Positions 17,466-37,236 of a DNA stretch of 64,000 nucleotides are shown piece after piece. The translations under genes and the position numbers were made by a program. A model generated the notes under the pieces. The model made no database searches. It was not told the DNA's origin and was given only the letters and a program-made list of their open reading frames with translations. Positions within the stretch are counted from its first letter, which is position 1; each line of letters opens with the position of its first letter. This DNA is from Escherichia coli (GTDB lineage: Bacteria; Pseudomonadota; Gammaproteobacteria; Enterobacterales; Enterobacteriaceae). The stretch lies in NCBI RefSeq assembly GCF_013122565.1, contig NZ_CP053258.1; one strand, written 5' to 3'.

Positions 17466-17541
17466 TGGCTCCTCTGACTGGACTCGAACCAGTGACATAC
17501 GGATTAACAGTCCGCCGTTCTACCGACTGAACTACAGAGGA
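17466..17541 (-). tRNA. asnV: tRNA-Asn (GUU)
   Basis: 76-nt reverse complement of the E. coli tRNA-Asn sequence; position between ldtA side and nac. Confidence 0.95.
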
Positions 17542-19873: not shown

Positions 19874-19949
19874 TGGCTCCTCTGACTGGACTCGAACCAG
19901 TGACATACGGATTAACAGTCCGCCGTTCTACCGACTGAACTACAGAGGA
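19874..19949 (-). tRNA. asnU: tRNA-Asn (GUU)
   Basis: Identical 76-nt tRNA-Asn sequence (reverse complement). Confidence 0.95.
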
Positions 19950-21697: not shown

Positions 21698-21773
21698 TCC
21701 TCTGTAGTTCAGTCGGTAGAACGGCGGACTGTTAATCCGTATGTCACTGGTTCGAGTCCAGTCAGAGGAGCCA
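21698..21773 (+). tRNA. asnW: tRNA-Asn (GUU)
   Basis: TCCTCTGTAGTTCAGTCGGTAGAACGGCGGACTGTTAATCCG...GAGCCA read directly on the plus strand. Confidence 0.95.
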
Positions 21774-24838: not shown

Positions 24839-26155
24839 TCAAGCGCGTTGATTGTCTTTCATCAACAAAGCGGTTATTGCGGAAATCAGGCATCCAGCCA
24901 GCAAATAAATGGCGACGCTATGCCAGTTCCCGGCAAAGTAAGTGATGAGTGCAGCGGCAATAAAAGGTGTAAATCCACCACCAACCACACTGGCAACCTG
25001 ATAACCGACTCCAGCGCCACTATAGCGATAACTGGCACCAAACATTTCGGTAAACATCGGTTGTTGCACACACACCACCATGTCATGCGCAATGTTTGCC
25101 AGCATTATGGAGAAGAAAACTATCCAGAAAATAGATTGTGCTTCAAGCGCCATAAAGAAAGGAAATGCGCTCAACGTTCCGATTAACGCACCTGTGATAT
25201 AAACCCTGCGGCGACCAAAACGATCGGCAAGCCAGGCAAAACAGGGAATTGTCAGGCAGCTTAATCCACCTACCAGCAAACCAATATTAAGGAAAAGTTC
25301 GCGCGGTAACCCCATATTCTGGGTTGAATAATTAAGTGCAAAGGCGGTAACGATGTACATCGTCAGCAACTCGCACAGCCGTAGCGCAATAATCTTCAGG
25401 AAAGCACCGGGATGTCGTAACAGAGCTTCGATAACCGGGATGCGTTTTTTCGCGGCCGCTTGATTATGTTGCTGTTGTTCAAATTCCGCAGACTCCTCCA
25501 TGCCATTGCGCACCCACAATGCTCCCAGTACCAGTACGATGCTAAACAGGAAAGGAATGCGCCAGCCCCAGCTTAAAAACTGTTCGTCAGTCGTCATCAT
25601 ACTGATCAATGAAACCAGTCCGGTTGAAAGCAGTAAACCTACACCGTAGCCAACTTGTACACCGCTACTGTAAAAGGCTTTTTTATTTTTCGGTGCACTT
25701 TCAACGGAAAGCAACGCCGCGCCTCCCCATTCGCCGCCGACGGCAAATCCCTGAATGGCACGCAGCGTCACCAGTAAAATAGGTGCCCACCACCCAATGG
25801 TCGAGAATGAAGGAAGAATACCAATCAAGGCTGTCGCGATGCCCATCATCCAGACGGTCAGCATTAACATGCGCTTACGTCCCAGTCGGTCGCCAAAGTG
25901 ACCGAAAATGACACCGCCGAGCGGACGGAAAAGGAATCCGACGCCAAAGGTGGCAAATGCGGCGAGCGTTCCCATCGCCGGGCTTACTTGCGGGAAAAAC
26001 TCGCGATTAAACACCAGTGCGGCGGTGATGCCATAGAGTAAAAAATCATACCAGTCGACGACGGCACCAGCGAAACTGCCTAACGCAGCTCGTCGGGCGC
26101 GACTTAACGAAAGCGTCCCTTCATCGGGACGAGTGGAGATGAGCGTGGAGTCCAT
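24839..26155 (-). CDS. shiA: Shikimate/dehydroshikimate MFS transporter
   Basis: 438 aa, MDSTLISTRPDEGTLSLSRARRAALGSFAGAVVDWYDF; 12-TM MFS layout. Confidence 0.9.
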   Translation of the reverse strand: MDSTLISTRPDEGTLSLSRARRAALGSFAGAVVDWYDFLLYGITAALVFNREFFPQVSPAMGTLAAFATFGVGFLFRPLGGVIFGHFGDRLGRKRMLMLTVWMMGIATALIGILPSFSTIGWWAPILLVTLRAIQGFAVGGEWGGAALLSVESAPKNKKAFYSSGVQVGYGVGLLLSTGLVSLISMMTTDEQFLSWGWRIPFLFSIVLVLGALWVRNGMEESAEFEQQQHNQAAAKKRIPVIEALLRHPGAFLKIIALRLCELLTMYIVTAFALNYSTQNMGLPRELFLNIGLLVGGLSCLTIPCFAWLADRFGRRRVYITGALIGTLSAFPFFMALEAQSIFWIVFFSIMLANIAHDMVVCVQQPMFTEMFGASYRYSGAGVGYQVASVVGGGFTPFIAAALITYFAGNWHSVAIYLLAGCLISAITALLMKDNQRA

Positions 26156-26469
26156 AATGATCCTGTTTGTACTGTCTTTTTATAATTAGTATGGAAAAGG
26201 TAACTCACATTGCCGTCGATCTATAAACGAACCTTATGAGACTACCTCGACAGAGCGCATCTGCAAATGATTTTATGGCTGATTAGCGGCAACATGAAAA
26301 ATTCGCTGGAAGATGAAAGCGCGGGAGTTGCTGGTGTTGTTTAAGGATTAAGCAGAGGACCCACAGGTTCGAGATATGAAACATAAAAGTCCGCATATGC
26401 ACAAAATGGCACCCTGATGAGTCTGATAGACTGCATTGCATTATAACCAGTAGGGAGGCGAGGTTAGGT

Positions 26470-27522
26470 ATGTTTTTAGCATCATTGTTGAGACGTATTG
26501 CATTTAGTTACTACGATTATAAAGCTTATAATTTCAATATTGAAAAAACAGATTTTGTTGTCATCCATATTCCCGATCAGATTGGCGATGCTATGGCCAT
26601 CTTTCCTGTTATTCGGACGCTTGAGTTGCATAAAATTAAGCATCTACTAATTGTTACGTCGACAATTAATTTAGAAGTCTTTAATGCGCTCAAACTTGAA
26701 CAGACTAAATTAACATTAGTCACAATGACTATGCAGGATCACGCAACATTAAAAGAAATAAAAGATTTAGCGAAGAACATAACACAGCAATACGGTACGC
26801 CGGATCTTTGTATAGAGGCGATGCGTAAAAAGAACCTGAAAACGATGTTATTTATCAGTCAGTTGAAAGCAAAAACGAATTTTCAGGTTGTTGGTTTAAC
26901 CATGAATTGCTACTCCCCTTTGTGCAAGAACGCGTCCCGTATGGATCAGAAACTCCGGGCTCCCGTACCCATGACATGGGCATTTATGATGCGTGAGGCG
27001 GGTTTTCCAGCAGTCAGGCCAATATATGAATTGCCACTAAGTGAGGATGTACTCGATGAGGTGCGCGAGGAAATGCGATCGTTAGGATCTTACATTGCGT
27101 TCAATTTAGAAGGTAGCTCGCAGGAACGTACATTTTCATTATCGATTGCAGAAAATCTAATAGAAAAAATTCAAAGTGAAACAGATATACCAATAGTGAT
27201 CGTTCATGGACCAAAAGGGGAAGGTAAAGCCAGGGAACTAGTGAATAGTTATAATAATGTCTACCGTTTATCCTTGTCACCATCGATTAAACGTTCAGCA
27301 GCAATCATAAAAGATGCTTATATCGCAATAACTCCTGACACTTCAATATTACATATGGCAAGTGCCTATAATACCCCCGTTGTTGCAATTTATGCTGATT
27401 ACAAAACGCGATGGCCCGCAATGGCCGATGTTTCGGAGTCAGTCGTCGTTGGGCAAAAAATTAACAATATAAGTCTGGATGAATTCGCAAAGGCATTAAA
27501 AAGTGTTTTGGCGAGAATATGA
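26470..27522 (+). CDS. yeeL: Putative glycosyltransferase (heptosyltransferase-like), intact yeeL homologue
   Basis: 350-aa uninterrupted ORF in the yeeL position between shiA and yeeJ; AT-rich; family assignment from memory, weaker than the positional call. Confidence 0.6.
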   Translation: MFLASLLRRIAFSYYDYKAYNFNIEKTDFVVIHIPDQIGDAMAIFPVIRTLELHKIKHLLIVTSTINLEVFNALKLEQTKLTLVTMTMQDHATLKEIKDLAKNITQQYGTPDLCIEAMRKKNLKTMLFISQLKAKTNFQVVGLTMNCYSPLCKNASRMDQKLRAPVPMTWAFMMREAGFPAVRPIYELPLSEDVLDEVREEMRSLGSYIAFNLEGSSQERTFSLSIAENLIEKIQSETDIPIVIVHGPKGEGKARELVNSYNNVYRLSLSPSIKRSAAIIKDAYIAITPDTSILHMASAYNTPVVAIYADYKTRWPAMADVSESVVVGQKINNISLDEFAKALKSVLARI

Positions 27523-27732: not shown

Positions 27733-27762
27733 TAAAAAAGAGTGCCCCGAATGGAGCACTCT
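27733..27762 (-). terminator. Rho-independent terminator of yeeJ
   Basis: On the minus strand: hairpin agagtgctccattcggggcactct followed by ttttt, 20 nt past the yeeJ stop. Confidence 0.6.
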
Positions 27763-27783
27763 TTAAGAAATTATAACGGAAAA

Positions 27784-35766
<7,983 letters not shown>

Positions 35767-36079
35767 GCTTACCTTCCCTGAACGAGCTAACATAAATGCG
35801 CCCTTTCTAGCACAGCGAAAAAATGTAAATCCTGATAGCAATATGATTGAAAATTAATAACTTTTCGTTAGGCAGTTTTGGGTGTGAGTTGCAAGAGGGG
35901 AGACTACTGAATTACTCAAGTTTTATAATCGAGGGGAAAATGGTGATGGCGTCCATAGCAAAACGCCCTCAACCATTAAGGTCGAAGGCGCTTAAGATGT
36001 CAAAAACCCGCTATCCGTTAAAAAGCAATGCTCAACTAAGGTCAGTGACATTGCGCTAAAAAAGCGAATTTTTAGAATT

Positions 36080-36155
36080 TGGCTCCTCTGACTGGACTCG
36101 AACCAGTGACATACGGATTAACAGTCCGCCGTTCTACCGACTGAACTACAGAGGA
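36080..36155 (-). tRNA. asnT: tRNA-Asn (GUU)
   Basis: Identical 76-nt tRNA-Asn (reverse complement); upstream flank atcgtgtgaacggggcgcatatta is identical to that of asnV. Confidence 0.95.
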
Positions 36156-37146: not shown

Positions 37147-37236
37147 GGAGAGATGCCGGAGCGGCTGAACGGACCGGTCTCGAAAACCGGAGTAGGGGCA
37201 ACTCTACCGGGGGTTCAAATCCCCCTCTCTCCGCCA
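37147..37236 (+). tRNA. serU: tRNA-Ser (CGA)
   Basis: GGAGAGATGCCGGAGCGGCTGAACGGACCGGTCTCGAAAACCGG...TTCAAATCCCCCTCTCTCCGCCA read directly; 90 nt with a long variable arm. Confidence 0.9.

Follow-up and report, generated by a model that had tools for sequence, protein, structure and literature searches.

Intact yeeL in an Escherichia coli genome and the predicted accessory glycosyltransferase that it encodes

The characterised glycosyltransferases of family 9 (GT9) are overwhelmingly dependent on ADP-heptose. Several enzymes serve here as points of comparison, i.e., WaaC (HepI) and WaaF (HepII), whose genes belong to the waa (rfa) cluster, WaaU (RfaK), and the bacterial autotransporter heptosyltransferases (BAHT) AAH and TibC, which modify AIDA-I and TibA. 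A further case to which YeeL can be likened is WaaH, an accessory modifier of the lipopolysaccharide (LPS) core that is encoded off-cluster.

We analysed the yeeL gene within a 64,000-nt stretch of Escherichia coli DNA (contig NZ_CP053258.1 of assembly GCF_013122565.1), referred to below as the window. A first-pass annotation of the window, made from its letters alone, had proposed that an uninterrupted 350-aa ORF occupies the yeeL position beside yeeJ, that this ORF is AT-rich and encodes a possibly functional glycosyltransferase, and that the K-12 copy of the gene is disrupted. The gene, its GT9 assignment, and the pseudogene status of the K-12 copy are all in RefSeq annotation, so an intact yeeL was already known, and the intact gene in the window, being the common allele, matters little as a finding. 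The accessible portions of the literature on yeeL concern K-12 strain engineering or unrelated topics and contained no biochemical or genetic data on YeeL; the metabolic-engineering papers that pair yeeL with the word "pseudogene" apparently use it, as far as their accessible portions go, as a neutral integration site.

The yeeL locus and the K-12 allele

In the list of open reading frames for the window, yeeL is an uninterrupted ORF at positions 26470..27522 (+), encoding 350 aa followed by a stop codon, and its coding sequence can be annotated as that of an intact GT9-family glycosyltransferase. The ATG with which it begins is the first start codon downstream of the preceding in-frame stop. 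A Shine-Dalgarno-like GAGG read from the sequence (26460..26463, +) lies 6 nt before this ATG, with a second element, GGGAGG, just upstream of it (26453-26458, +). The GC content of yeeL is 38.7%, whereas the window as a whole has 47.2% and its genes amn, shiA, and yeeJ have 49.5-50.6%, in agreement with the AT-richness noted in the first-pass annotation; yeeL is in this respect similar to waaL and waaU, outer-core genes that are also AT-rich (31-32% GC).

The shikimate transporter gene shiA (24839..26155, -; identified from the ORF list and the annotation of orthologous regions) is divergent from yeeL, and the 314-bp intergenic region between the two genes (26156..26469) presumably holds the yeeL promoter. 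A scan of this interval for consensus sigma-70 promoters found no site upstream of the yeeL ATG, and the whole scanned region gave three sites, against 4.7 expected from shuffles. On its other side, yeeL is convergent with the inverse-autotransporter adhesin gene yeeJ (ORF at 27784..35841, -, from the ORF list), and the spacer between them contains an intrinsic terminator belonging to yeeJ, a strong hairpin with a 12-bp stem followed by a T-run (27737..27764, -), which was found by a terminator scan and is visible in the sequence. The window copy of yeeJ is intact, with a probable ATG at 35766 that yields a 2660-aa product and an upstream TTG that would yield 2685 aa. Two yeeJ variants that differ by a 906-bp fragment have been described (PMC5595812), and by its size the window copy fits the long, UMN026-type variant with the extra 906 bp. 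Its passenger domain contains two long, near-identical blocks of Ig-like repeats. In many of the genomes sampled, yeeJ is a pseudogene. The window also carries four tRNA-Asn(GTT) genes and one tRNA-Ser(CGA) gene (17466-17541, 19874-19949, 21698-21773, 36080-36155, and 37147-37236). Of these, the tRNA-Asn gene at 36080-36155, immediately beyond the start of yeeJ, is the counterpart of asnT, which has been described as a hot spot of island integration (PMC5595812).

The K-12 derivative DH1 has the same gene order as the window, amn-shiA-[1053-bp gene]-yeeJ, and RefSeq annotates its yeeL as a "glycosyltransferase family 9 protein" pseudogene with an "internal stop". When aligned, the window and K-12 genes are colinear over all 1053 bp, with no indels and 31 nucleotide differences (97% nucleotide identity). 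The only disabling difference is at codon 235 (27172..27174, +), which is CAA (Gln) in the window and TAA (stop) in K-12, B, and related strains. The synteny and colinearity thus confirm that the ORF stands at the yeeL position, and the disruption of the K-12 gene that the first-pass annotation had mentioned stems from one nonsense codon and not from a rearrangement. Besides Q235*, the K-12 sequence has 12 amino-acid substitutions relative to the window. A product of the K-12 gene would miss residues 235-350, including E251 and the donor-binding motif D290-T291...H295, and since the donor-binding segment is lost in its entirety, this allele is null.

To count the two alleles, we used 55-mers centred on the SNP, such that every 28-base megablast seed spans it. 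Of 5426 complete E. coli genomes, 5284 had the yeeL locus and 142 did not. The CAA (Gln235) allele was found in 4148 genomes, i.e., roughly 78% of locus carriers, and the TAA235 allele in 771 (about 15% of sequenced E. coli), among them K-12 derivatives, derivatives of E. coli B (ATCC 11303 and B95), and wild isolates of human, poultry, and pig origin and one from a frog. Ten non-K-12 genomes taken down the match ranking, including O157:H7, O104:H4, and APEC BEN2908, all had a 1053-bp yeeL with no pseudogene flag. Intact yeeL is therefore the majority state of E. coli, and K-12 is the exception. Lesions independent of Q235* were seen elsewhere, namely an IS1 insertion that splits the gene and an IS3-associated truncation.

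RefSeq lists the exact 350-aa protein of the window under accession WP_171459244.1, with the name "glycosyltransferase family 9 protein [Escherichia coli]", and it belongs to a 90%-identity cluster with 10,923 E. coli member sequences. Among E. coli YeeL sequences, many have 346 aa instead of 350 but share both termini with the longer form, which implies an allele with an in-frame internal deletion of four codons.

Family, fold, and conserved motifs

The Pfam model for this family, PF01075 (Glyco_transf_9), matched YeeL with an E-value of 3.7e-8 and a score of 33.4 bits, compared with a gathering score of 22; the match covers residues 177-323, in the C-terminal domain only. The AlphaFold model of YeeL shows a GT-B fold with two Rossmann domains (pLDDT 83.8, pTM 0.82), and the top Foldseek matches of this model are solved GT9 structures. 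The profile search that the first-pass annotation had suggested thus did return a glycosyltransferase family, and YeeL is probably a stand-alone cytoplasmic GT-B glycosyltransferase of CAZy/Pfam family 9.

Assigning individual residues was less direct. Searches of the PDB with phmmer and hmmsearch gave only marginal matches (E 0.08-0.97), confined to the D-T...H motif, and hhalign against single WaaC and WaaF sequences aligned only the C-terminal 85 or so residues. Because these direct comparisons were marginal or partial, motifs were mapped through a bridging alignment of 28 sequences that passes through intermediate homologues and includes WaaC, WaaF, and WaaU. In this alignment, G39-D40 of YeeL (26584..26589, +) corresponds to G12-D13 of WaaC, which holds the proposed catalytic base, and is invariant in all 28 sequences; within the YeeL family, the pair is likewise invariant and sits in the motif HIPDQIGDAM. 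R220 (27127..27129, +), invariant in the YeeL family, aligns with the lysine of the WaaC "TRDDK" segment and so replaces K192, which we take to be a phosphate-binding basic residue, conservatively. D290-T291-S292-I-L-H295 (27337..27354, +) was matched by HMMER and hhalign to D261-T262-G263...H266, the nucleotide-sugar motif of WaaC, with H295 invariant and D290 and T291 nearly invariant in the bridging alignment. The functions that we give to D13, K192, D261-T262, and H266 are those we take the structural literature on WaaC to have established. The column of WaaC E222 is occupied by glycine (G250) in YeeL, with a glutamate one residue further on (E251).

The N-terminal, acceptor-side domain is where YeeL stands apart. 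A loop specific to the YeeL family, residues 142-162 (26893..26955, +), was predicted with low confidence (pLDDT below 50) and aligns poorly with WaaC and WaaF; it contains C147 and C152, which are invariant in the YeeL family. C114 is the third invariant cysteine of the family. Possible roles for these cysteines are metal binding, acceptor recognition, or membrane association.

Relatives of YeeL and candidate functions

In Escherichia and its close relatives, yeeL is an orphan whose surroundings vary and include no LPS genes. The E. albertii orthologue lies near tonB/yciA and that of Rosenbergiella adjoins an MFS transporter gene, while a 71%-identical homologue, a protein labelled E. coli on a human gut metagenome contig (L007, 10001-11059), sits between hchA and mtfA. 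On that contig, mtfA is followed directly by shiA-amn, so that the usual site lacks both yeeJ and yeeL and the family occupies a different slot nearby. In Erwinia aphidicola (CP188307.1; L003, 10001-11134), a 62%-identical orthologue lies on the opposite strand within the tail module of a P2-like prophage. Its neighbours are the tube gene on one side and a tail-fibre gene, which is truncated, on the other, and no sheath gene was called there. This orthologue is either cargo of the moron type or the result of insertion into a prophage in decay.

A profile search of 1.84 billion representatives returned further full-length relatives, with identities of 25-34%, and six of the seven that we examined adjoin genes of LPS or O-antigen type. 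In Carnimonas and its relatives, the neighbouring genes encode Wzy_C (ligase/polymerase), Bac_transf, WecG, GT2, and GT4 proteins and another GT9; two distant relatives adjoin GT8 transferases of core type. One relative is a natural Wzy_C-GT9 fusion of 780 aa (P0266; L023, 8001-10343), encoded in a cluster with hldE-like, rfaD-like, lpxL-like, GT2, and GT4 genes.

It is because these distant relatives stand beside LPS and O-antigen genes that we look to LPS for the acceptor of YeeL. The best explanation of the locus, and one that we consider probable, is that the window carries the ancestral, intact allele of yeeL and that this encodes an accessory, ADP-heptose-dependent glycosyltransferase of LPS type. 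Such an enzyme would transfer heptose from ADP-heptose with inversion, as other GT9 enzymes do. The divergent N-terminal domain would hold the acceptor, a hydroxyl of which would be deprotonated by D40, the counterpart of WaaC D13, and R220, D290-T291, and H295 would hold the ADP-sugar as their equivalents do in WaaC. The acceptor would most likely be an LPS core-type or related lipid-linked oligosaccharide, and YeeL would act as an accessory, non-essential, and probably conditionally expressed modifier of envelope glycans, not as WaaC, WaaF, or WaaQ. That the function is dispensable follows from the recurrent inactivation of the gene: Q235*, shared by K-12, B, and some 15% of sequenced E. coli, removes the donor-binding half, and other lineages have lost the gene through IS insertions.

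Several points speak against this explanation. In sequence, the N-terminal acceptor domain is not recognisably similar to that of WaaC, WaaF, or WaaQ, the E222 column holds a glycine, and the promoter scan was empty. No LPS genes lie near yeeL in Escherichia and its close relatives, so that the argument for LPS comes from the relatives at 25-34% identity. To our knowledge, published E. coli core structures contain no obvious unassigned heptose. An active GT9 enzyme could instead work on another glycan (O-antigen or ECA intermediates, capsule, or another undecaprenyl-linked oligosaccharide) or use a donor other than ADP-heptose. The strong divergence of the acceptor domain, with its family-specific cysteine loop, would fit such an enzyme, as would the WaaC E222 column, which is not conserved, and the Wzy_C, Bac_transf, and WecG genes that flank distant relatives are as typical of Und-P-linked pathways as of the core. 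Nevertheless, the fusion relative lies beside ADP-heptose genes of hldE and rfaD type as well as an lpxL-like gene, the two GT8 neighbours are of core type, and YeeL keeps the D-T motif with which WaaC contacts heptose; a different donor would also depart from what is general among characterised GT9 enzymes. We therefore regard another glycan or donor as unlikely.

We also asked whether the ORF could be intact yet functionless, i.e., a silent, horizontally acquired, AT-rich relic in slow loss, of which K-12 shows one stage. The low GC content relative to the flanks and the empty promoter scan would agree with this, as would the dispensability of the gene in K-12 and B and its recurrent independent loss, whether through Q235* in 771 genomes, the IS1 split, the IS3-linked truncation, or the 142 absences. 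A relic of this kind, however, would be expected to decay quickly. With the base composition of yeeL, the probability of a stop is 0.069 per codon, or one stop per 14 codons or so, and a neutral AT-rich ORF of 1 kb would soon gain stops; the probability of 350 stop-free codons at this composition is about 1e-11, the longest stop-free run in 500 shuffles of the gene was 164 codons, and the remaining five frames of the region have at most 61 stop-free codons. The gene is exactly 1053 bp long, with no indels, in all 12 sampled genomes when K-12 DH1 is set aside and the window and strain 1368KP are counted. Across 13 yeeL alleles, mean dN/dS was 0.20 and third codon positions made up 59 of the 106 variable sites, both signs of constraint. 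Full-length orthologues at 53-72% identity were found in E. albertii, Pseudocitrobacter, Erwinia, and Rosenbergiella; their alignment has about 100 invariant residues, and the catalytic residues remain invariant across these genera and beyond. These data show that yeeL is a real gene under purifying selection, and together the dN/dS of about 0.2, the PF01075 score above threshold, and the conserved catalytic motifs make YeeL look functional, as the first-pass annotation had allowed. A decaying relic is, in our judgement, improbable.

The neighbouring adhesin gene raises a different possibility, namely that YeeL is a BAHT-like protein glycosyltransferase that heptosylates YeeJ or another autotransporter. 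This is attractive since the AAH/TibC heptosyltransferases pair with autotransporters. Against it, yeeL and yeeJ are convergent, with the terminator of yeeJ between them, and are thus not co-transcribed, and no inverse autotransporter was found near the yeeL orthologue in E. albertii, Erwinia, Rosenbergiella, or the 71%-identical relative. Many E. coli have an intact yeeL together with a yeeJ that is frameshifted, internally deleted, or IS-truncated, and intact yeeJ has been reported in only 35-40% of genomes (PMC5595812, PMC6714894), compared with the much higher share of locus carriers that have Gln235. Furthermore, YeeJ of the expected size (246 kDa) is displayed on the surface of MG1655, a yeeL-null strain, where it promotes biofilm formation. 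YeeL also lacks the iron finger and N-terminal beta-barrel of BAHT enzymes. On the grounds of orientation, unconserved linkage, the decay of yeeJ, the function of YeeJ in MG1655, and the missing BAHT hallmarks, we rejected a functional coupling of yeeL to yeeJ, and we hold heptosylation of an autotransporter by YeeL to be very unlikely.

Mobile-element collections were searched as well. A tblastn search of YeeL against 50,697 phage genomes gave no match, and neither did PADLOC; the eight yeeL matches in a plasmid collection are all Mb-sized or otherwise chromosome-like records, and an origin of yeeL on a phage or plasmid was rejected on these grounds. YeeL does match the PHROG family phrog_27389 (function unknown) over its full length with 756 bits, but this profile is essentially YeeL itself and was probably built from E. 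coli prophage predictions that extend too far. A phage-derived gene for lysogenic conversion or receptor masking that blocks phage adsorption, which the PHROG match, the Erwinia orthologue beside a tail-fibre gene, and an AT-rich gene near tRNA-Asn integration hot spots might evoke, is the least likely of the readings considered, given these searches, the degraded look of the Erwinia prophage around the insertion (the truncated fibre gene and the uncalled sheath gene), and the absence of flanking phage genes in E. coli, E. albertii, Rosenbergiella, and the 71%-identical relative.

A broader and more tentative proposal is that most natural E. coli might decorate the LPS core, or an envelope glycan related to it, with heptose or another sugar in a YeeL-dependent and conditionally expressed manner. 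Such a decoration could have been overlooked because K-12 and B, the two main laboratory lineages, share the Q235* null; these strains are natural yeeL nulls, and studies of envelope glycans in laboratory strains alone would miss the product of YeeL. The single-codon difference from K-12 offers a clean experimental handle on the substrate of YeeL. Were the proposal true, a new LPS modification would appear in K-12 once that codon is repaired, possibly with effects on phage, serum, or host recognition.

Comparison with known heptosyltransferases

YeeL was considered as an equivalog of WaaC, WaaF, or WaaQ and rejected. Its scores against the corresponding NCBIfam equivalog models are far below the cutoffs (39.5 against 185.3 for WaaC, TIGR02193; 21.0 against 134.6 for WaaF, TIGR02195; and 16.3 against 170.2 for WaaQ, TIGR02201), the matches being partial and C-terminal only, and the gene lies between shiA and yeeJ, whereas the waa cluster is elsewhere in the chromosome. 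The solved structures of WaaC and WaaF (PDB 2H1F, 2H1H, 6DFE, and 1PSW) have 14-15% identity to YeeL, which differs from both in its N-terminal acceptor domain and in the extra cysteine-containing loop at residues 142-162. Unlike waaC and waaF, yeeL is outside the waa cluster and dispensable. Another GT9 protein of known structure, that of Veillonella parvula (PDB 3TOV, function uncharacterised), is from a different phylum and has 15% identity to YeeL.

The BAHT enzymes TibC and AAH share with YeeL a GT-B core of ADP-heptose type and an adhesin gene as neighbour. In TibC, the iron finger is built from cysteines 339, 342, 358, and 370. In contrast, the C-lobe of YeeL contains no cysteine; its only three cysteines, C114, C147, and C152, belong to the N-terminal domain, and the protein thus has no four-cysteine iron finger. 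The beta-hairpin thumb that accompanies the N-terminal beta-barrel in BAHT enzymes is likewise missing from YeeL, and the TibC chain is larger (381 residues). BAHT genes are coupled genetically to their autotransporter substrate, whereas yeeL is not coupled to yeeJ.

Another parallel is WaaU. Like YeeL, it belongs to GT9 and has the G-D and D-T...H motifs, at 16% identity to YeeL, and its gene has a GC content of 31%. WaaU and WaaH are non-essential accessory glycosyltransferases with AT-rich genes that decorate the LPS core, a type to which YeeL would probably belong.
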